Of a stretch of 64,000 nucleotides of DNA, positions 14,664-53,779 are shown one piece after another. The DNA is from Moniliella sp. 'wahieum' (lineage: Eukaryota): positions 186,001 to 250,000 of the forward strand of contig RSEE01000042.1 in the NCBI GenBank assembly GCA_003971905.1. Direction: 5' to 3'. The translations under genes were made by a program, and so were the position numbers. The notes below the pieces were generated by a model. The model did not search any database. It was not told where the DNA came from and saw only the letters and a list, made by a program, of their open reading frames with translations. Numbering within the stretch: the stretch's first letter is position 1; each line of letters begins with the position of its first letter.

Positions 14664-14795
14664 TTCCCCATTTTCCATTTCCCATTTCCCATTTCCCATT
14701 TTCAATTTCCCATTTCCCTTTCTCCTTTCCCCTTTCCCCCTTTCCCCTTTCCCCTTTCCCCTTTCCCATTCTCTAATTCCCAATTCCCATTCCCC
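14664..14795. repeat. pyrimidine-rich heptamer microsatellite (TTTCCCA/TTTCCCC)n
   Basis: Imperfect 7-bp-period tandem repeat in the divergent promoter upstream of ARG1. Confidence 0.85.
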
Positions 14796-28759: not shown

Positions 28760-30520
28760 TCAAGGACTGCATCGACTTGCTCGTCCAAAAATCCGTCCGT
28801 TGGCGCCGACTGATCCGAGCGAGCTTTTTGGGCCGTCCTCCACCTCCTCGTCCAACTGCGACGACTGAGCGCCTTGTTTCTCACTCGCGCTACCAGCCAG
28901 CTTGGTCGCGCTGCTTTTGCCCTCTGCGGCGTTCAAGGGGCTGGCGGGTTCACTGGCAGACTTCCCTGACCCCACCTCCACACCCAATGTGGCTTCGACC
29001 TGGGCGCGCGTCTTCTCTCGCTCTGCTTGGCTCAATGGAGGCGAGGAAGAAGGGGAAGCAGAGGAAGGGGGGGAAGGCGGGGACTTGGTCGCCTTGGGCA
29101 CGGCATCGGGCTCCTTCTCCCGTTCCAAAGGCCTTTCAACTTGCTGTGCACGTACCCCGACTCGGAGAGACGCGATAGCTGTATATAGTCAGTAGATGGA
29201 TCTCGGATCCGATGAGCGGACAAAAACAGGGAGGGGGGGGGGAAGGCGGGACGTACCCGATTGCGCTGTTTGATGGCCTCCTCTGAGATACCGAGGATGC
29301 ACCCCAAGAGCGAGCGGGGGTCACGGCTCGGCTCGACCGCTCGTCGTCGGCCTTGGTCATCAAATTTGGTGCGGGAGGGGCGAAGCAGGTGGCGGCCAGG
29401 GTCGGCGGTCGGATCAAATCGACACAAGGCACTGCTTAGCACATCGTACGCACCGCTGAACGTTTGGCGCACGTTGAGAATGTTAAGGAGGACTTGGACA
29501 CGTCGTTGGTCGTATCCAACGGATCTTCAATTGACAAGAGGAACGGACGCCGTTCGTCCTTCCATCCCGAACGCGCTTTGGAAAAGTAGCCGCCTTTGCC
29601 GCGAACGGTGATGCCAACCTGATCGTAATTGAATTGCTTGCCATAGAGCGAAAAAATTCGAGCAACAAGACCCCGGTTGTCACACGGGTCAATCTCCCGG
29701 CGCTGAACTTTGGGGTGCAATTGAAGAAAATTGATCACCAAGAGCGTGCACGCAAAGCTTCCCAGTCCACCAGAGTACACCTCACTCAAGCCACGCTGGG
29801 CGAGCAAGAGCTTGACACACATGGTCAGCGGCCGTACGGCCGGTTGGCGCCGGAGCCACGAGTTGACAAAGCGCGCGGCGGCAATACCATTGGTGTGGTT
29901 GAGGGACATGTCCACCTTGAACTTGCCCAGAGAGGGAAGGGTGGTGAATTTGATGATGGGCACGCGGGCATGGGCAATGACTTGAATGTCGTCAGCAATG
30001 CCATTGGTCTGGATGACGGTACGAAGCGCGTGGAGGATCCGCCGCGGGTTCTGCTGGCCCATCGACTCGGACACACAGACCAAGTCAATATCGCCTTGGG
30101 GCAGATAAAGACGCGTTTCTTGGCTGCCAAAGCTGTGCACTTGGGCATCGCGAAAGCGCGTGGTGACCGTCTGGCGGATGAGCTGAATCGCAGCGCGGCG
30201 GGTCTCGTGCTCGTCGGGGTTAGGTAGGGAGGTAGCGGTCAAACGCAACGATTTCCCGGTGCAGCGCTTGGGCGGCGTGGCGGCGGTATGCCAGTCAACG
30301 TCCTTGGACCAGGGGGTGGTGAGGTCGAGCACGCCGGCATCGCGCTTGCGTTTGCGGGATTCGTGGGCCGGGGTGTCGTGGCCATCGACGGACGCGATGA
30401 GGTCGTCAAGAGAGGGGGGCGGAGGAGAGTGGGTGGCGGGAGGGGGGGAGGCGGGGGAGGGCCAAAGGAGATGAAGTCGTCCTGGAAGGCGCGACTGCTG
30501 TCGCGCTGTGCGGAGGCCAT
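28760..30520 (-). CDS. TRF4: non-canonical poly(A) polymerase of the TRAMP complex (Trf4/Trf5/Cid14/PAPD5)
   Basis: FQDDFISF, SFGSQETRLYLPQGDIDLV, ARVPIIKF, EVYSGGLGSF and LSIEDPLDTTNDVSKSS motifs. Late intron near 29179..29255. Confidence 0.93.
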
Positions 30521-30699
30521 GGCGGTGGGGGTGGGGGGCGCTGGGTGCTGGGTGCTTGGTGCTTGGGCCTGGTGCTTGCAGCGTGCGAAGGCCAGGGCTG
30601 CCACACGGTTTGAGCCGTCGGCTGGAGAGCAGGAGAAAAAAACCACCTGCGCGGGCGGAATGCACGGCGGGTGGCGCGGCGGAATGCCATCGCTGTTGC

Positions 30700-32640
30700 G
30701 ATGGGCTGCAATAACGTTGCAATATTGAAGGCGCCTTGACGTAATGTTTCAAGTGCACTTACCAATTCCAATTTGCAAGCCGCATGTGTCACGGGCCTCT
30801 TACCTCATCAATCTCATCGATCATCGATCATCGATCATCAGGTAGATCTCAACGGTCAAATCATTGCTTCGCCGATCCTCGATCCTGGCCCCTTGTCCAT
30901 TTCGGACCAGGGCATCCTTTGCTTCCCTTGGTCTTTGGTCTCAGATCGCACTCGTGTCGCCAGACCCTTCCATGCACCTGCTGCTGGGAGTTGCAAATTA
31001 ACTGGTCACCGGTCAACCCAACGTCCAACGTCCAACACGCTTTTTCGTGCGAACCGAACCAACCGAACCTCAATAATGCGCCCGGTGATCGGTGATACCA
31101 CCACTGACTTGACGCGTGACGTTTGACGCTCGTTTCCCGTCTCCCTGTAAGCTTTTAAGCCTTGGGCCTTGCGCGTTATGCGTTACGAACGGGAAGTAGA
31201 AAGATGAGAGGGCCGGTGCGGTGAAAGGTCATGTGACCGGTGTTTCACGTTTAGGACAAACCCTTAGGCCTTAGGCCTTACTACCTCCTAGTTACTAGCT
31301 TGACATGCATCACATGTGACAAGTGACCAGTACTGTGATATGTCTTGAACAGGGCTTGGCACCACCACATCACGGTGAGTAGTGAGTAGTGACTAGTGAC
31401 TAGTGACTAGTTACTGATTAATGATTGCTTGATGCCGGTATCCTGGGACGCGGAACGTCAGCGCGTCAGATTCAAGCCGGAACAGGCCGGAACATCAAGT
31501 GAGTACGTTGAACGAGCTGAGCGCTTTGATGTTAATTTGATGCATGATGCATGATGATCGATGAGACTGACGTACTCAGTACCAAGCCACTGGCGACTGA
31601 GGTATTGAGCGCAAGGTATTGAGCGCATAACGAACCTAAGTCCTGAGGCGATGCATGGTGCAACGTGCATGCTCCATGAATAACTTGGTTGCGAGGAGAC
31701 CATTATCCTTTAACGTTTAACGTTTAACGTACCTTGAACGTCTTGAAGCTTGAACCTTTAAGCTTTACGTGTTGCGAGCTTTGCGGGCGCTTTACGCTTT
31801 ACTAGTTACTGGTTTAACTTGTAGCGGGTAAGGCGTAACGGTGACATGTGACATGCATGACATGAATGGCATGTCACATGTCACATGTCACATGTCACAT
31901 GTCACTGTGATCGATGGCCAATTGATTGAAAAGCGATTGCAACCAAGTTGATAGCATTTTACGGTTAAGAAATGCCCCAATGTGTCTCACGTTTTGTCAT
32001 ACTAAACGTACCAGTCACCGATCACATGTCACATGTCACATGCAACATTGATGTATGATGCATGCATTACTTGTGGTGGCGTAAGAGACGCGTTAAGCGG
32101 TAGGCGTGACCGGGTGACCGGTGACGCGTGACGGTGACCAGGGACTCGTGGCGCGTGACTCGGGGACTGGAGCATGTGACACTTGTGACATGGGAGATCT
32201 GAGATGTGAGATCGGATGCAGATGCGCCTGATGCGGCGGGGGCTGAATGGAAGGGCGTTTGTGTCTGGGTTGTGCGTTGCGTCGGATGTCCCGAATTGCA
32301 GGGCCTGGTTTGTTTTCGGTCCTGCGTCCCGCGCGTCACACGTCACGCGTCACTTGAAGATTGATTGACCGATGGTCGACTGCATCGATGCATGCATGCA
32401 CCATGCATCAGCCGGATGGGTAGGGTCGCAACGCAGGCCGCCGGCGGTATTTGCAGGGTGCCCAGGGTCCAGCACACTTGCCAACGACTCTGTGTGACAT
32501 GTGACATGTGCGTACGTGAGTACACGAGTGCTAGTCACTACTCACCCGGTGCTCCGTGCCCGCACCCATTCATGAACCCATCCATGCAATCACGGCAGTC
32601 GCTGTGCGCTGGCTAGCTGACTAGATCCCTGGCACACATG
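30700..32640. repeat. cluster of heptamer quasi-palindromic arrays in the TRF4/SSN6 divergent promoter
   Basis: (TCATCGA)3 at 30814, (CCTTAGG)n at 31262, (GTGACTA)3 at 31389, (TTTAACG)3 at 31709, (CATGTCA)5 at 31870 and GTGAC-based mixed arrays at 32106. Confidence 0.85.
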
Positions 32641-32819
32641 CTGCTGGGCGGTGTGCGTGTGCCGAGAGGCTGCAAGCAATCTTCGGCCGCGTTGGCTCAA
32701 CCAATCCACTGCTAGCAGCTGTGCGGGTGCCCCTTGCAGTCTGCCGTCGGCGTTGCCGTTCTCCCTGCCGTCCCCCTGTCGTCCCCTGCCTGCCGCCCGC
32801 CGCCACCGCACCCCGATCG

Positions 32820-35800
32820 ATGGCGTACAGCCAGCGCCAGCCCGTGCCTCCGGCGGATGCCCGACGTGTATGCGCGCCCCTACGCCTATGCGCCGCCGCC
32901 TGCCGCCTCCCGCGACCAGCCCGAGCATGCCCAGTGGCCGCGCCGCCCGCCCGCGTACGCCGCGCCGCCGCCCGAGTACAGCCCCAGCGCCGCCTACCGC
33001 CCGCCGCCGCCATGCCGCGCCGCCCGTATCCGTGCGCTATGCCAGGACCGCGAGGTGGAGCCAGATGCGCATGCCGCCCCCGCCGCCCCGCCCCCTCGGT
33101 GCTGGGCCATGCGCGCGCCCCTACTCGCCTGCCGCCCTCCCCACCGCCATCCGCCCGGGCCCCGCCGCTGCCCCCGGCCCCGGCCCCATCCCGCCCCCGC
33201 CCATCGGCCCCGGTCGTCGCCGTTGCCCTCGCCAGCCCAGGCGGGCCACCACGCCCCCCTGGCACCCGGGCATGCCGCCCCGCCGCGCGCGGTACGAAGC
33301 GTCCCCTCGCCCGCCGAGGGAGGTGCCGTGGGAGGAGCGGGATGGCAGCAGCGTATGAGCGCGAGCGCGCCCAGCGGGAGTATGAGTACGAGTACGAGTA
33401 CGAGTACCAGGCCCAGGCTCAGGCTCAGGCTCATGCTCAGGCTCAAGCTCAGGCTCATGCTCACGCCCAAGCCCAAGCCCAAGCCCACGCCCACGCTCAA
33501 GCTCAAGCTCAAGCTCAAGCTCAAGCTCAAGCTCAAGCCCACGCTCAGGCTCAGGCTGCCCACGCCCAAGTCGACCCACTTCGCCACGCGTCGCCTGCAG
33601 GAACGGAGGAGCGCGAGTGGGAGTGGAAATGGGAGCGGGACAATGCGCGGCGTGGTCCCCATGCGCTGCATATGCTGCCGGCTGGGGAACGTACACGCGA
33701 ACGGCTGATGGCGTACGAGCGGGAGTATGAGCTGAACCGCCGGCAGGGCGTCGCTATGAGTCTTCTCCCGCCCTACGCTGCTCCTCCTGACTCGGACGAG
33801 AGGGAAGAGGATCGAGCGCAAGCGCAAGCGCTCGCGCATGCTCATGCTCATGCCCATGCTCAACAAGCCCATGCTCAACATGCCCACGTTCAAGCGCAGA
33901 CCCAAGCTCAAGCTCAAGCCCAAGCACACGCCCAAGCCGAAGCCCAAGCACAGGCACAGGCAGTACAAGCCGAAGCCGAAGCTCAATCTCAGGCACAAGC
34001 TCAAGCAGCTCAAGCAGCTCAAGCGGCTCAAGCAGCCGAAGCAGCTCATGCAGCTCAAGCAGCCGAAGCAGCCCATGCAGCTCAAGCACAAGCGCGAGCA
34101 CAAGCCCAAGCCCAAGCCCAGGCCCAGGCCCAGATGGACGCCGCAGCTCATGCACATGCTCAACACATGGAGGCTGTCCATGCCCCCACTGAAGCCGAAG
34201 CGGATGTCACGCCCTTGCTCATGTTCCTGCTCATGCGCATGCCCAAGGCGAAGCGCACCGCCTCCGACCAACTCCGACGATGGGTAGGATGCCTCTTCCG
34301 CTGCAATCGCCCGTGCTACGAGAGAGACCGATGGAAGGGACAGGAGCGAGCGTGGCGCGCGTGGTGGCGCCCGTGCCGGTCCATGCTACGGCAGGAGGAA
34401 GAGGGAGTGTGGAAAATGGTGTTGCGCCGGGCACGGTGGCTGCGGGTGCCGAGGCAGCTGGCACCAGCTCCTCGCCGCCTTTGCGCCCTGCCTCGGCCCA
34501 GCTCCCGGTTCCCGCCCGAGAACCGGTAGGGGTGATGAAAGAGTTGATGCAAGCCAATGTCGAAACGTGGTTGTCAATTGGTGTGTACAGTTTGGTTTCC
34601 GGCTGCTCGCTATGATATACTAACCTAACCCCCCCCCTTCCCGCGACGTTAGCCTCGGCGGCATCTACCATGGGCGGTCGCGATGGCTACGAACGGGCGA
34701 TTGAATCGATCCAGAATGCACTACAGCACGATCCCCACTCGTTGGCGGCGCATCGAGCGCTGGGCAACGTGTACCGGGACATGGAGCAGCTGGATGTGGC
34801 GGTGGACGTGCTTCAACGCGCGCTCCAGCTGGCCCCTGAGGATGGCGAGACGTGGGGGGCGCTGGGCCACTGTTACCTGCTGATGGACGACTTGCAAAAT
34901 GCGTATGCGGCGTACCAGAAAGCGCTCTACAACCTGCCCAACGCCAAAGAGCCACGGCTATGGTACGGGATTGGTATTCTGTACGACCGGTATGGTCTGT
35001 TGGACCAGGCCGAACAAGCGTTCTCGAGTGTGGTCAGCATGGACCACGACTTGACAAGGCCAACGAAATCTTTTTCCGTCTCGGGGTGATTTACAAGCAA
35101 CAGCGCAAGTTTGCCGCCAGCCTCGAGTTTCCGCTACATTCTCCCGACCCGCCCGCGCCGCTGAAACAGGCCGATATCCAGTTCCAAGTGGGCCACGTGT
35201 CGGAACTGCAGGGCGACTTGGGGGCGGCGAAAGAAGCGTACGAGCGGGTGCTTGCCGAGCTACCCCAGCACGCCAAGGTGCTGCAACAGCTGGGCGGCCT
35301 GTATCTTCACCCCGCCGCGCCATTTGCAGACCACGAGCGGCGGTGGAGTACCTGACCGTGTCGCTGGAGGGCGATGCGGCGGATGCGCAAACGTGGTACC
35401 TTCTCGGTCGCGCCTTGATGGTTCAAGAAAACTACGACAAGGCGTACGAGGCGTACCAGCAGGCCGTGTACCGCGACGGGAACCAAGCTACGTTTTGGTG
35501 TTCGATTGGGCTGCTGTACTACCGGATTGAGCAGTACGAAGATACGCTGGATGCGTTTAGTCGTGCCATTCAGCTTCACCCGGGCATCCCCGAGGTTTGG
35601 TTCAACTTGGGCTGTCTGTACGAGACGTGCAACAACCAATGGCAAGATGCGCGGGACGCCTATGTGCGCGCGGCCCAGTTGGACCCGGACAATGCAGTGA
35701 TCGAGCGCGCTTGCGCTCCTTTCTCGCCCAACCAACCCAGCCTGTGCTCCCGCCCGCCGACCACCAACGCCATTGGATGTCCCCGACGCGGTGCAGTATG

Positions 35801-36833
35801 TGTCGGGCTCGTACGAGCCGGCCGAAGGCGAAGAGGGGCCAGCCGTATCCCACGCCGCCGTACCGACTCTGCATGCGCTCGGCCTGGAATGCAAGCGCCG
35901 AGAATGGCGAGCGGGCTACCTGCGCTGCAGCCCAAGGCGGGGGTCCCTCCCTCGTTCCAACGGCCGAACGGGAACGTGCCGACGCAGCGCCCAGTCCGCT
36001 TACCACGTCTGACGCGCGCCTCCCTGCGAACGGGGAGCTTGCGCAGCGCCCTGCTGGCCCGGGCGGGTGGGAGCCCGACGCTGCGGGCCCAAGACGACGG
36101 GTTGGGCGTGGGACGCGAGCCGGCGAGTGGCAAGAAAAAACGACCTTCGCCCCGCCCGCGCCGGAAAGCACAAAAGTCCGATCCAGACGCCCCCGAGAAC
36201 GTGAAAGAAGAGCTGCGGGAAGCTGATAGCGGTGCGGTGGATGCGCTGCTGGGTTTGGCCGGGGGCGCACGGTACCAGCAGCCTGTGCGGCCTCCTTCGG
36301 CGCCCACCGCCCCACCGGCCCTTTCGCCCCCACGCTCGTCAGTGGGGTCAGCGACCAGCGCACCAGCCCTGGCTAGCGGGCCGACGGGACGGCCTAGCAG
36401 TGCACTCGGTCGAGCCCCAACCAAGCGCGACCGCTGGACCGCTGCTTCGCCCCTACAGCGAACAAGCGGCGTCGGGTGTCCAGTACAGGCCGTGGGCTTG
36501 AGGAGCGGGGACCCAGTCCTCCCTCGCATCCTCTCGCATCCCCCCTCGCGTCCTCCCTCGCGTCCCCCCTCGCGTGCTACTTCGCGTCCCCCCTCGCGTG
36601 CTACTTCGCGTCCCGCCTCGCGTCCAGGCACCGAAGCGCACCCGTTGATGCGCGAAAAGGTCATGGCCAGTCCAGGTGCCAGCGCTATCTCTGCCACTGG
36701 TTCCGAGCCTCTCCCGCGCCCCTTCTCGCCCCTGTCCCCGGACGAGCCGCACCTTCGTCCGCACTCGGCCGGCGGCCGGCGAGCGCGGCCGGACGGACCA
36801 CTGACAAGCAAGGCCAGCGCAGGCAGTCCCTAG
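32820..36833 (+). CDS. SSN6: general transcriptional corepressor Ssn6/Cyc8 (10 TPRs)
   Basis: TPRs include GETWGALGHCYLLMDDLQNAYAAYQKALY, LWYGIGILYDRYG, AYEAYQQAVYRDG and EVWFNLGCLYETCNNQ. Intron 34581..34652. Long Gln-Ala tracts. Start approximate. Confidence 0.94.
33380..34165 (+). repeat. coding hexamer repeats encoding (YE)n and (QA/HA)n tracts in Ssn6
   Basis: GAGTAC, CAGGCT, CAAGCT and CATGCT repeats in two blocks (~33380-33570 and ~33817-34165). Confidence 0.9.
36530..36626 (+). repeat. 12-bp coding tandem repeat (PPSR/ATSR)n in the Ssn6 C-terminus
   Basis: Repeated CCCCCCTCGCGT / GCTACTTCGCGT units. Confidence 0.8.
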
Positions 36834-42046: not shown

Positions 42047-44773
42047 GCGTTCTGTCTGTCACGTTGGGCATGATGCTGTACGGAGTGCTATTCTAGAACA
42101 GATCCTCCTCGGTTAGCGCTCTTGTCCTTCTATGTTCCGTGTGGTGTGCTCATTTCAGTGCACCCATCATGCTTTCCCCCGCATGCCCCCCCATCCAAAA
42201 TTGACATTGGCCTCGGGTCTTTGGCCGTCCCCCCTCCCCGTTGTCTGTTTCCTCTAGCTCGATGTCGTTAAACCAATAGTGGGAGTTCGACTAACGAGTC
42301 CAACGGAGGCTGTGAGATCAGGTTGCCAGATGGATCTGATCGTCAAAGGTTCCTTCATGGTCCCGCGACATCCGTAACAGTTATAACAGGCTCACGGACG
42401 CATAAGAGCTTGTTTGCCCCTCATTTCAATTTCGCCTTCCGATCCCACCCAGTATTCTCTTCCACCTTTTCGTTCCTCTGCTGTCTTAATAGAGAAGTCG
42501 TTTAACGCGGCATGTTCCCTTGTTGAAGAACTCATCAACCCCCCATGACGATATCCATGATGCCGCCGTGTGCCCACTCAGGTTGAACGTTTGAACCATT
42601 ATACTTCGATCATTTCACGCAGCCATGTTGGGTTCTTACTAGGCCTATTTGGGCCTTATTGGCATACGATCTCAGCTTTGGGTCAATAGTAGCGAACGTC
42701 CTGGTCCACCCGACTATGGAGACCGTAATGGATGCTGATGTGTTTGGGACAGTAGCATAGGCGTTCATGCGGGCGAGAGAGAGGCGCTGGTGGTCGGAAG
42801 CAGGACGAGGGCTATAGGAGAAGGCTACTAGTCGTTGGCTTACGAGTGTACGCGCGCATCAGCAGTCTTCGGGGAGCCCAGGAGCCTCGGGCTGTAGTGA
42901 GGTCGAAAGTGCACCGCGATCAGCCATGAAGCCAGTCACTGTCGCAACACCATACAAGAGTCAAGAGGACAATGCGCTGTCTTTAATTGATGGTTGTGGA
43001 CCAACGGAAGTTCTCCAAGTACTAATGTGTTCTTCTCAGCCACTCTCACCGTGGATTCCCCAATTCTAAATGTTCCATTCTCCATTCTTCGTAGCCACAG
43101 TAAATGGTTTTTGGCCACGCACGGTATGTAATTCCCATAATTGCATCCGTGGGGACAATCTTCTCGCCACTCACTCTCTCGTCTTGGTCATTGGAGACGA
43201 TTTTGACATATGACATCATACTGGGGCCGTAAGCTCTTTCAATATCAATGGGAACCATGCGACCCCTACGTCCGTGTTAATGACGTTCACACGCTTATTC
43301 CCTAACCGGTAACCCCCATCTTTTTCAAGTGCACACGCTATCCTAAGGCCTAAGGCATATAACTTAGAATCGTTTCTTCTTTGAATCTATGTGATGGTAA
43401 CGGTTGGTACGGGCACCCGCTCCAGACACTCTGTCGTTGGGCATATATGGGCATCGAACGCTCTGCCACATACAATGTGGAAGGCCGTTAGCTCGTATAG
43501 CGCCTCTTGTGTTTTCTCTTGAATCTCCGCTACGCATCCTTCCTTTGAGAATGGGAGCGCGGGACCCTTTTTCTGGACGGTTAGTTTAGGGGTATAAACC
43601 CTTGGACAGATCAATCGGTAGCTCGACATTAGGTCCTCCTCCAGATCCTGGTTGAACCGAGCGGGTGTAGAGAGGCGAGGAGAGACCCTTAGTTTTGGTG
43701 GCGCGCTGCGTGCAAAGGCCGCAGTCCAGACCTCCGAGGGGTAGGAGCCGCGTACGTAGGTAGTTAGACCAGCTGAAGGGGTCCAGGAGCTCCGAAGTTA
43801 TCCTCTGTTCTCGCAGCGTTATCACACTCGGTACGCTTAGCTGGCGGGGAACAGACAGAGTCCTAGAGAAGAGCAAGCGCTACTGATGAGGAGTAACCGC
43901 GGCTTGCAGTGCACTCGACGGAAGTCGTAAATTCGTAAGCGTAAGGGTAGTAGAAGGTGGAAGGCGAGAGAGGAACTGGTGGTATATAGTCGGGGGGAGA
44001 CCAAAGGTAGAGGACCAGGATAGTCGACAAGGACCACAGCTAGCAAGCCTTAGACATGGCTGCTTATAATACGCAGAGGGAACCAGGTCTCAAGTGCCTT
44101 CATGACAGATTGCGGGAGGGCACTTCCAGAGAGGTAAATACTAATGCACAGCGGGCCCTTGCTCTCCAAGGCGCTGCGCTGCGTAGTCGCGCAGCATCAA
44201 GGGTCTGACAAGACTGGGCGCATTGGGCACAAGCATCGTTGCCGATAACCCATGATGCGACCATGGCGGGCGTGATGATATCCGCAGCAAGGATAAGGTG
44301 TCGACTGGCTCTCTCTCGCTAATCTAACCGGACTGACGCGTGTTGGGCTGAGATGTCTACGACATGCGGGGCTCAGCGTCCGGAGATAACCGGAGCGCCC
44401 CGTAACAGCGTTACACTTTTCCTCGTTCCCGTGTTGGGATAGTGTATGTGCAGACTGGAGGGTATCTTACCACCGAGCAAGGGCCAACCAAAAGGAGATT
44501 GTGAAGACTGATGAATCGAGATAAGAGAAACTGTGATGGCCACGTACTGATAGTATAGACCGCACGAAAGCCACTAGGACTCATCGCATTCAAACTGCGA
44601 GGAGAGAAGACGAAGTATTACATGACCATTGCATCAACATTGAAGTTCAACGTTCAACACGCACCAACTAGTACGCATCACGTACGCTGCACCCCTCTTT
44701 TTCCGGCTTTTTCCAGGAGTGCGATGAATGTGCTTGTGACAGCCGCTGTGCCAAGATTTAGGCCTCAACAACG

Positions 44774-45088
44774 CCACCATAGCAATTAGTGTTAGAGGTA
44801 CTGCTAGGGTTCTCCTGCGCGGCCCTCAATGGATCGGTGACGCTCGCCTAGCCGAGCGGAAGCGTTCCGCTCGCAGGCGCGCACGCCCTGCTCGCTCCAT
44901 CTCCCTTCTCTCTCTCCTTTCTCTCCTTCCCTTCAGACGTTGCTTGAAGACTTGTGGCTTCCCACTTTGCCTTCACGCCTTGTCTGAAGGTACGCCTCTG
45001 CTTCCTTTCTTGACCTGTTGCTCCTCACAATCAGACGTTGCTTGAAGACTTGTGGCTCACCACTTTGCCTTCATGCCTTGTCTGAAGG
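44774..45088. repeat. dispersed structured element, locus A, with two tandem copies of a 58-nt hairpin (44933..44990 and 45031..45088)
   Basis: Hairpin copies are identical at 55/58 nt. Terminal inverted repeat CCTTCAGAC/GTCTGAAGG. Homologous to 53780..54000. Confidence 0.85.
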
Positions 45089-47892
45089 CTGCTTTGCAGC
45101 TGATCCATAGGATCGCGAGTGCTCCCAAGTCGCACTCTAGCAATTAGGAACCGAAAAAAACTGGACTTTCGTATCGAAAAAGCAATTCAAAATTAAAGCA
45201 GATCATATGAAGAAGGTATGAGCAGCACATGCTGAGCTTTTAAGTGTGGGCTGTAAGCTCTGTAAGGGAGAACCTGGGGGAGCCTGGTGAATCCGGTGGA
45301 TATAGGTGACTAGTGACTGTGGTGACATTTAACGACTATATAGTGACTAGTGTTGACGTTGAGCGTTGAACGTACGTGTTGAACGTTGAACATTGACTAG
45401 TGACTATAGTGACGGGTGACGTGTGACTGGTGACTAGCCTGACTGGTAGTCCTAGTTGAAAGAGTGGGGGCTAGGGTGAAGCACTAGACCGGGCGATCAA
45501 TGGGTGAGCGCGACAAATCGGTCACACCAGTGAGAGCCCAGAACCGCGGTTGCCCGTTAACTGAGAAGTAGCTACGCTACCAAGCTAAGGACGATTGCAC
45601 TGTGCAGGGTGGGAACAGCCAGAGACAGCTTCTTGTAAGCTCCTGACGCTAGTCCAACCTTCAATGCAACAGGGAGAAGAGGAACGAGGGGAACGAGGGC
45701 GCGACGGTAACCAATCCGGAGCGCGCGAGTCGCGGAACTCTATAGCCAGTTCCGCTTGCCAGCGACATGGCCGATCCAGCCATCACACCAAGTGGTGCCA
45801 CATGCCACCACACTCCAACACTAGTGCATGATGTATGGCAGGTCCCTTATAGCCACAACAAGTGCACACTTACCATATGGTCCCACGGTATACGCTCCGC
45901 CCCTCCATATAGTTGTCTTCGTTTGTCTTTTAGCAATGGTTCTTCGGTTGCCGGTAAGGCGGCAACAGGTAATGAAGGCGTAGCGCTTAGCAAGCGCTTT
46001 TATGGTAGTGTCATGGATTTTTTCTGAATCTATGAGATGGATAGACCGAGGAGGCAAGCCCATACGGGCATGCGGAGAAGAATCGGTAGTCCATCAATTA
46101 CATCAGTCTTCAAGCCTGTGAAGACTTTTGTGATGAGCGTCGTACGTTGAATACTGGGAAACGGGGCCTCTCAACGTCAAAAGCGTAGTGGTATCGTCAT
46201 CGCCACACGTCATGACGCTGTGGAGCGTGGGTAAGATTATGGCCCACTCACGCGAGGAGAGACCTGAGGCTCAGGCCTGAGGGCTTGAGGCGGGCCAGGG
46301 TAGGTTTGAGGGGCCTAGTATGCTCGAGTCCTCAGACCTGGGCCTTCGGTCTTAGGCCTCAATATTCAATGCGCTCAAGCTTCTTGAGCTCGTCAAGCTT
46401 CAAGCTTCGAGGCGCTGAAGTGTTCGATACGATATGTAGATGTTTTGATTATGTGACGGATACTAATGTCTGCGGGTCACTGGCGGACTGATCGATCATG
46501 CACATGTTGGCTGCTTTTGCCGGCATTCGCTTGAGGCCTCGCGGGGCATCACCATCCCCTGGCACAGGTGCCGAGGATTCAATATTCAAGCTTTCAAGCT
46601 CCAGGCTGCTGATGCCTGAGCCTCAGACCTTAGACTAGGGCCTTAGCCCTCTCAGGCTCTAGGCCTTCCGGATACCATGAATGGCGCCAGCCACAGTAGT
46701 AGGGTGTGTGTACACGATGAACCCATGTCGAAGATGGGGGGTTGGACGACATTGATCCGTCATCGCCCTATTGGAGACAAGAAATTTGGGAGGGTACATT
46801 CGCCCCCTGCTTCGTCAGCATGTAATATGTACTTGTTTGTCTTCTTTGACGGTATAGCCCCGACCAAAACGGTCGACACGAGGCTTGTGGACCCCACAGA
46901 GAGGGCACCAGAAAAGGCGCCGTGACCCTACTGGATTGTAATGACATGGGAGGAGGTGTGAAGCTTGAAGGGTGAGACATGAGGCCTGTGAGGCCCGAGG
47001 CGGAGAAAAGAGCCCGCTCTTCACTCTGCGGACGACATGCCGTTGACGGGGGTGAAGGTGGGATGCAGGCTACTACCCAGCCTCTTCGAGGCAGAGGCTG
47101 TGAGTTTGTGGCGTATTCAAACACCCATGGCACCCAGACTCAAGTACTCATCGATCATGAACGCATCTCAACGTAACACTCGCCCACGGCGAGTGGCGCT
47201 GGTTTCTGCACCCTGGCCAGCCAGCCTCCCAACCAGCAGGGCTTGCTTTGTTTTGTTCAAACACCCCGTCCGGCAACAGCTTCAAGCTTCATTGGCCGAA
47301 GGGTCGGGGACGCTGAGCATCGGCTTCCGCTGCGTTGAGCACGTTGAGTGCTGCCACCACCACCACCTCCCGCGTCGGCTTCGGCCTCCACCCTCCTCTG
47401 CGGCCCATTTTCATACGCATTCGCCCTCCTCCCGTCTCGCCCCACCTTGAACGAACAGGCTGCGCCCCTTCTTCCTGCCATTGCCCTGGTGGCCAACATC
47501 CTCAGCATATCAACGGATCAGTGCCTCCGTGCCTCAGCACCTCAGCACCTCAGCGCCCGCCGCCATTCAGCACGCCGGGGCCTGCAGGCAGCCCGGTTTA
47601 ACAAAGCTTACTCTCCCACTCCCGTAGAGGCGTGATCTTTCTTCCTTTTCCTTTTCCCTTCCCCTCCCCTCCCCGCCTCTCCCTCTCCCCTTCCATCTGC
47701 TCGAAAGCGCGCCAATTCAGCGCGTGCCATGTCTGTGCCCCGCACACGTTTTCCTCATCCGCCTCATTCGTTCTGAGACGTTCGTTTCTGCTTCGTAATT
47801 CACCACCGAACACCATCAATCGAAGCGGAAGAGCGTTGAGCTCAGCTCTAATCACTCCTCGCCATGCCTCCCTCCCCCACCCCCCGCTCAAC

Positions 47893-52925: not shown

Positions 52926-53779
52926 GGGGAGAGAGGTGGTGGAGGCAGAGGTAGGAGGTCGGAAGGGCGGTGAGGAAGAGGGATGCCGACAGGGTTGGCT
53001 GGGCCGCCACTCTCCCGCCGGGCGCCAGTGTAGAGCGGGCCATTTCTCAAGTGTGTGCTGCTCCGAAAGGGGGGGGGACACTGCCCTGGCGCTGGCAAAG
53101 CAGAGCCGCGGGATTTACACTGCCGCTGTGCGTCCTAGGTCATGGATCCTTGACTGTCCCCGTGCGGTCGTTGGAGGGCACACGAGGTTCCTTTGACGCG
53201 TATGACGTCCACGGCCGAGCGAGAAGAAGCGCACGGGCCAGCGGCATGTGTGTGTCGATGCGCATGCCAGGACCTGAGGCACAGGAACAACACGAATGGG
53301 CCACATATCATAGCCACGCCAGGTTACCGGTTACATTTACACCTGCCACACCCGCCCTGTTGTTTGTCTGCAACCATTGCTTAGGCCCGGGAAGATCGAC
53401 AGATATGTTCAAGAAGATACATGATGTTAATGAAGAGGCATGTAAGGATGTGCATGTGGGCGTCCGCAGTCTGTCTTTGTGAACTAAAAGTCGGCTGTCG
53501 CTATTAGTCATTGATTGTTTCCCCCATGTATGGAAATGCCCCGAGAGCAAGGGAGAGCCAAGGGGTGTAACTAACGTGGTACTGATACAGCGTCAGATCC
53601 TCCCTTGTTTAGGCCCCGCGGTTCCTGGACTTATGACGAGACCGCGGCGGGTATATTAAGTGTAAGTTTTGTTGGCGTATATGCGATCATGGATTCACTA
53701 CCACCAGAGAAAGATGACGCGGCAGAAGCATATATACACTGCTATAGTATATATATAGTTCGGCCGACCATTAACATAA

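Follow-up and report, generated by a model that had tools for sequence, protein, structure and literature searches.

Results

Period-7 arrays in a divergent promoter

The window, by which we mean the whole 64-kb stretch of DNA that was analysed, contains a 2.3-kb divergent intergenic region crowded with short arrays of period 7. It belongs to a 69.5-Mb fungal assembly with two haplotype-like copies, and the second copy of the window region lies on the contig C41. The minus-strand gene is TRF4/PAP2-like by its protein matches, as a preliminary description of this DNA had it, and the name SSN6-like for the plus-strand TPR-repeat gene comes from that description only. Long Gln-Ala repeats of the TPR gene, at 33408-34132, differ between the haplotypes. 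In the list of features, each unit is written as joint-core-joint; the flank rule (the 5+2 rule) is set out further below.

29032..30520, minus strand: TRF4/PAP2-like poly(A) polymerase gene, frameshifted in the assembly; best named match Tilletiaria anomala, 67%
30521..32819: divergent intergenic region with the arrays, 2.3 kb, between the start codons at 30520 (minus) and 32820 (plus)
30814..30839: TCA-TCGA array, 3 units; the flank rule reduces it to one TCA site
31006..31015: single unit TCA-CCGG-TCA; its core is a copy of the left flank
31110..31119: single unit TGA-CGCG-TGA
31159..31165: 7-base insertion relative to C41 with the off-consensus joint TTG; obeys the 5+2 rule
31264..31280: TTA-GGCC array, 2 units
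31376..31424: mixed cores, a TGA-CTAG array (31390) terminating in TGA-TTAA (31415)
31538..31564: TGA-TGCA twice and TGA-TCGA; reduces fully to one TGA site; one extra unit in C41
31658..31664: 7-base insertion relative to C41 with the off-consensus joint GCA; obeys the 5+2 rule
31703..31707: empty TTA site; C41 has TTA-TCGA-TTA (L012 5260)
31710..31767: TTA-ACGT and TGA/TTA-AGCT units
31799..31808: TTA-CTAG-TTA, in the window, missing from C41
31842..31905: TGA-CATG unit and TCA-CATG array of 5.1 copies (31870); C41 has two copies fewer
31956..31963: empty TTA site; C41 has TTA-AATT-TTA (L012 5493)
32022..32042: TCA-CATG array, 3 copies
32115..32131: mixed array TGA-CCGG-TGA-CGCG-TGA; two events at a single TGA site, the first core from one flank (left) and the other from the opposite flank (right)
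32343..32352: single unit TCA-CGCG-TCA
32495..32510: TGA-CATG units
32820..36833, plus strand: TPR-repeat gene with a long Gln-Ala tract, frameshifted in the assembly

Period-7 arrays with a T-N-A joint and a palindromic tetramer had been described here and lie where they were reported, the array given at 32114 being read as 32115/32122. The exception is TGA-GATC at ~32195, where the window reads TGA-GATG-TGA and the palindromic form occurs in the C41 copy.

Palindromic cores are concentrated at one joint and one core length

In the window, 76 of 184 T-N-A-[4]-T-N-A sites have a palindromic core, compared with 7.4 ± 2.8 (maximum 15) in 200 dinucleotide shuffles. In the region 30700-32640 the figure is 31/57, compared with 0.47 (maximum 5), and the comparison with composition-matched shuffles suggested in the preliminary description thus returned an enrichment at both scales. 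The comparison with other joints and core lengths, also suggested there, singles out T-N-A with a 4-base core. The remaining 15 X-N-Y joints have 3-9% palindromic 4-base cores, T-N-A joints with cores of length 5 or 6 have 3% and 5%, and the runner-up geometry for a 4-base core, T-NN-A, has 30/137, all in the window. The cores are as diverse as had been said, but the earlier count of about 14 of the 16 palindromic tetramers is one short: the window uses 15, and the full set of 16 is found in a 408-kb sample made up of 264 kb of the window's contig and 144 kb around repeats. In this sample, which is not random, 520 of 1271 T-N-A-[4]-T-N-A sites have a palindromic core, or 1.3 units per kb.

Open reading frames of at least 150 aa make up 42% of the window and contain 4 of the 76 palindromic units, compared with 821 of 2462 TNA sites. 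The densest of 132 2-kb bins is 30001-32000, with 25 units, in the TRF4/TPR-gene intergenic region. Across 481 kb, 154 of 315 exact heptamer tandem repeats are of this kind. A period-7 array of the CCCATTT type, with 18 copies at 14667-14795 of the window, lies outside the TNA-core rule.

The assembly is noisy in indels, with 2302 one-base indels in 260,637 aligned columns. The window and C41 differ by 3-4% substitutions and very many 1-2 base indels, much as if noisy long reads of a hybrid or dikaryon had been assembled. The heptamer arrays nevertheless recur in C41, a separately assembled contig, and this recurrence argues against a basecalling artefact.

Many seven-base differences between haplotypes follow a 5+2 rule

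We compared the haplotypes over these 260,637 columns, dropping alignments that were shorter than 600 columns or on the minus strand, and took as clean those indels with at least 8 of 10 matching flank bases, which brings the length-7 set from 95 to 91. These indels are counted irrespective of direction, and some may be losses. Their lengths peak at seven, with 64, 57, 91, and 21 clean indels of length 5, 6, 7, and 8.

A single rule describes many of the seven-base differences. With primes denoting complements, xy-TNA-zw becomes TNA-zww'z'-TNA or, in mirror form, TNA-y'x'xy-TNA, a gain of 7 bases of which five are direct and two inverted. Two examples from C41 are TTA-TC, which becomes TTA-TCGA-TTA-TC, and TT-TTA, which becomes TT-TTA-AATT-TTA. 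The rule is fitted exactly by 26 of the 91 indels, none of them a plain duplication, where the chance of 0.12% each leads one to expect 0.1. Another 18 fit if one mismatch is allowed (for 11 of them a one-mismatch duplication would serve as well), 23 are plain 7-bp duplications, 1 fits a one-mismatch duplication alone, and 23 fit neither rule nor duplication. The corresponding test at indel lengths 4-6 and 8-10 gives 1-5 cases each. The joint is TNA in 21 of the 26 exact events and the two mirror forms are about equally frequent (14 and 12). Off-consensus joints, TTG and GCA, follow the same rule. Since the 26 exact events are not duplications, simple slippage does not produce them.

The same geometry is written into the standing units. 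The core equals the adjacent outer flank in 69 of the 76 window units, and among isolated period-7 pairs it matches the flank in 198 of 485, compared with 31.6 in shuffles. In the promoter region, 13 of 14 stretches tested shed units by the rule, and the mixed arrays at 32115 and 31538 collapse to a single TNA site. The preliminary description took mixed arrays to need two coordinated changes, but a unit, on being added, takes its core from the two bases beside the joint, so mixed arrays are successive events. Simple slippage does not create the first unit; the growth of homogeneous arrays may be due to slippage or to repeated hits. It had also proposed a fold-back or template-switch process. 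A symmetry-generating mutational process in non-coding DNA is supported. Plain fold-back, by which the new joint would receive the complementary middle base, is not supported: in the 408-kb sample the middle base of the two joints is the same in 419 of 520 units, complementary in 53, and otherwise different in 48.

Isolated units have G or C as their middle base in 83% of cases and show no further strong preference. A one-sided preference for G seen in the 26 exact events vanished in 150 isolated units. Four cases of period 11, considered as joints in which both overhangs were kept, are equally well a doubled core and were set aside. Mosaic cores, expected from ligated and patched mismatched overhangs, are not enriched (24 compared with 20.8). 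Targets that were already quasi-palindromic number 33 of the 198 isolated scars, where 14 are expected; decayed arrays may contribute to this excess, which is no more than a hint.

All 16 cores occur among the scars, and they follow the flank rather than the end bases of an element. Footprints of the Tc1/mariner or Harbinger type were rejected for this reason, as their cores would derive from the element ends. The 5+2 geometry predicts an element with a 7-bp target duplication centred on TNA and excision through hairpins.

A CT..AG element family with a 7-bp duplication

A search with a terminal motif combined with the joint rule gave 412 matches. Among the 100 matches listed, a facing pair of ends on C11 bounds an element of 4849 bp whose inverted arms are 83 nt long. 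Six loci were retrieved with the terminal motif, and five of them turned out not to be elements. With the C11 end as query, 28 matches were found in the genome, comprising five full copies of ~4.9 kb (C11, C23, C29, C34, C35), a half copy at a contig end, short derivatives, and older ends. The family has CT..AG termini with CAC starting at base 3, and inverted ends with many subterminal repeats. Its copies differ by 0.13-0.55%.

An exact 7-bp duplication flanks five of the eight two-ended elements (GTTGATG twice, CATCAAC, GATCATG, and GATGATG). All five centre on TGA/TCA, as NN-T(G/C)A-NN, where TNA starts at ~3.6% of positions. The C11 and C38 elements have unequal 7-mers at their two ends, both TNA-centred, and the old two-ended C8/C23 element departs from the pattern. 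TNA centring is found at three single-ended loci (C149, C16/C4, C66). Differing flanks, both TNA-centred, are also seen at the elements at L091 542 and 5390 and L133 4883-5055, as expected from element-made adjacent deletions.

All five full copies carry a coding remnant that matches a profile of 84 EnSpm-like proteins (i-E 5e-9 to 5e-6) and retains its C(2)C, H(3)H, and last E. They are without the N-terminal part, profile positions below 383 of 829. Pfam gave no match to this remnant, and a protein search of the genome returned only the five full copies and one partial copy, none of them autonomous.

The five exact duplications are all of the form S-W-TSA-W-S, and the same flank class accounts for 23 of the 198 isolated scars. 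The family as seen therefore cannot have made most of the scars, and for these sister families, an older relative, or survivor bias must be assumed. No CT..AG-type element was polymorphic between the haplotypes in the 260 kb aligned.

Homologous sites of element copies

At the C35/C46 pair, the C46 homologue is empty and holds a single copy of the 7-mer, which confirms the 7-bp target duplication. At C29/C53, the C53 homologue reads GT-TGA-TGCA-TGA-TG, which is the predicted scar, and the flanks align at 87% and 92%. At C11/C54 there is an adjacent deletion of 67 bp beside the C11 element, and at C20/C22 one copy of the 7-mer stands next to an unrelated 13-base difference. The predicted scar is thus present at one of four informative homologous sites. 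For the C34 copy, no homologue was found in the genome.

The C29/C53 flanks differ by 3.8-6.6%. Since the divergence among the element copies is far below this, the copies are younger than the haplotype split, and the C53 scar therefore probably does not derive from an insertion inherited by both haplotypes. It likely needs a second hit at the same favoured site or a later conversion. As a rough estimate, the scar would have arisen there by chance with a probability of roughly 1-5%.

Other transposons and repeats

Loose searches of the genome for hAT, MULE, and Plavaka families found nothing. For four PF02992 matches, in three families, neither ends nor duplications could be resolved; used as DNA queries, they picked up other high-copy repeats. 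Three other EnSpm-like coding loci lie at L021 3682-6400, L022 3263-6873, and L023 2891-7248, without resolvable ends. Two of the three, C17/C62 and C127/C44, are common to both haplotypes. The one on C34 has long open frames (446, 251, and 543 aa), and the noisy assembly could make it look more decayed than it is. Protein searches found no longer relatives of two transposase pieces.

The readable large polymorphic insertions in 260 kb are LTR elements and SINE-like copies. A solo-LTR-like insertion at 44790-45145 of the window, with TG..CA ends and a 5-bp duplication, is missing from C41. Conversely, C41 has a 220-bp solo LTR (L014 6263-6483) at window 53386-53388, and the same LTR family flanks a 5.5-kb element from L077 6804 to L078 2367. 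Window 43963-44402 belongs to a high-copy repeat of 440 bp with 735 candidates genome-wide, and a high-copy SINE-like repeat of ~150 bp (611 candidates) is found at L022 2880-2970 and in L031-L049. A tRNA origin of the latter is a guess.

Discussion

A transposon excision model for the heptamer units

Each unit is very probably a scar left where a cut-and-paste DNA transposon inserted and excised once, and the arrays are by-products rather than signals. The element would insert at NN-T(G/C)A-NN and duplicate 7 bp, as seen for the CT..AG family. On excision each flank may be sealed as a flush hairpin with no base lost, like those of RAG and Transib. A host nuclease would then open the hairpins two bases past the tip, leaving 4-base palindromic overhangs, zw-w'z' and y'x'-xy. 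End joining that keeps one of the two overhangs would add 7 bases and give TNA-zww'z'-TNA or TNA-y'x'xy-TNA, the two products observed at about 1:1. As a scar contains two TNA sites, further hits could build arrays, as could slippage of the 7-bp repeat. Mixed cores would arise when the hit falls at the other end or after a flank mutation, consistent with the reduction of arrays by the rule. The TRF4/TPR-gene promoter is presumably a hot spot as open non-coding DNA that tolerates insertions.

A more far-reaching proposal is that an undescribed lineage related to EnSpm and Transib, whose ends are CT..AG and whose 7-bp duplication is centred on T(G/C)A, excises through flush RAG-like hairpins with near-invariant repair. 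Its scars would be perfect quasi-palindromic targets that feed back into arrays. It would have made about half of the genome's heptamer tandem repeats (154/315 in 481 kb), amounting to tens of thousands of scars by extrapolation, and would be a major source of promoter indels. We give this extended proposal an even chance of being correct.

Comparison with known systems

Excision of Ac/Ds, a hAT element, leaves P-nucleotide footprints: once hairpins have been opened and ends joined, flank bases are found copied as a palindrome (PMC5873905), as in the heptamer units. The Ac/Ds palindromes, however, are centred on the complement of the element-adjacent base and are varied, with 28 types in 128 clones (PMC5873905), whereas the heptamer scars have a flush palindrome of two bases and, almost without exception, a net change of +7. 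Hairpins on the flanks have been documented for hAT, Transib, MULE, and RAG (PMC5499845), and Artemis opens hairpins mainly at +2 (PMC2175297). A flush hairpin of the RAG/Transib kind opened at +2 would yield exactly a 4-base palindromic overhang, which equals the core. Unlike RAG coding ends, the heptamer scars accumulate in a heritable genome, and the fungal opening enzyme is only postulated. For EnSpm/CACTA enzymes, no report of flank hairpins was found in the literature searched. Transib duplicates 5 bp.

The CMCT clade (EnSpm/CACTA, ESTA, Plavaka, and Transib) is described as having CA..TG ends and 2-5 bp duplications (PMC12730594). With this clade (PMC12730594) and with CNIRT6 and CNEST of Cryptococcus (PMC12810828), the CT..AG family shares the C(2)C, H(3-4)H, and E motifs as well as inverted ends with many subterminal repeats. 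With CT..AG ends and a 7-bp duplication, it departs from the clade as characterised in the descriptions in PMC12730594. The family works like the CMCT clade but fails two of its marks, ends and duplication length. In basidiomycetes, a 7-bp duplication is known from the hAT7 families of rust fungi (PMC12730594), and the hAT superfamily forms flank hairpins (PMC12730594, PMC5499845). Unlike hAT7, the coding remnant of the CT..AG family matches an EnSpm-like profile. The hAT dimerisation domain PF05699 had no match in the genome, in a weak search whose control also matched nowhere.

The nearest precedent found is in Ustilago maydis, a smut relative, in which many small intergenic repeats of 10 bp were suggested to be transposon footprints (PMC4081816). 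These differ in length, and the account consulted gives no rule, palindromic core, or element (PMC4081816). Excision footprints are thus a known kind of sequence. The literature searched, which excluded most subscription papers and Repbase, yielded no account of such arrays, nor of any EnSpm-like element that duplicates 7 bp. The novelty lies in the near-invariant geometry of the footprints, their density, their arrays, and an EnSpm-like family that makes a 7-bp duplication.

Alternative explanations

It is unlikely, though the least so of the alternatives, that the 5+2 pattern is written by element-independent break and repair and that the transposon family merely shares the target. The agent would be a domesticated transposase or other nuclease that cuts at T(G/C)A, or else a double template switch of stereotyped form with the T/A as its one base of homology. 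Such a process would suit the 520 units in 408 kb set against about a dozen element loci, the scar flanks that are broader than those of the CT..AG family, and the three other EnSpm-like coding loci, which are without resolvable ends and two of which are common to both haplotypes. However, it leaves the TGA/TCA centring of all five exact 7-bp duplications unexplained, given how few positions start a TNA, and does not account for the scar at the homologue of an occupied site (C29/C53). Template switching in particular gives no reason for a single length and a single joint.

TGA/TCA half-sites resemble bZIP sites, and the units could be binding sites of a dimeric factor or form a structural code that selection has kept and multiplied in promoters. 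The scarcity of units in long reading frames (4 of 76) and their highest density in a divergent promoter fit such a role. So do the 133 of 272 units that are identical between the haplotypes and a substitution rate slightly lower inside units (3.8%) than beside them (4.4%), with 3.0% far away. The changes that do occur, however, are of the wrong kind for a maintained code: 90 of the 272 units carry an indel and 1 has an in-place core swap, while others lose a joint (25), lose symmetry (14), or change the middle base (9). In addition, the core is dictated by the flank, the joints are direct rather than inverted repeats, and off-consensus joints follow the same rule. With the substitution rate inside units near that of neighbouring DNA, the symmetry code read by a protein that the preliminary description had offered is very unlikely. 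Some arrays may have been co-opted later.

That the units are ordinary microsatellites grown by slippage, or consensus errors of long reads, is barely credible: 16 of the 23 plain 7-bp haplotype duplications are array units and the assembly is rich in indels, but the 26 exact 5+2 events are not duplications and exclude slippage as the origin of units, the arrays are common to two separately assembled contigs, and the 120 metagenome loci listed, chosen for a CATG heptamer array, have no excess of other palindromic cores (131/1982, 6.6%). Among these 120 loci no relative with the heptamer grammar was found.

Implications

The heptamer repeats most likely record a mutational process, transposon excision and its repair, and not a code for regulation. 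Genomes do not normally let excision footprints be seen, but the regularity of the heptamer scars makes them countable, and the rule covers 26 to 44 of the 91 seven-base haplotype differences. Motif finders would report such palindromes as regulatory elements. In addition, the scars would reveal a route by which new promoter tandem repeats arise. Past transposition and hairpin repair in a fungus would be preserved in them as a fossil record across the genome, and they would suggest, indirectly, that flank hairpins of the RAG kind are formed by an EnSpm-like transposase.
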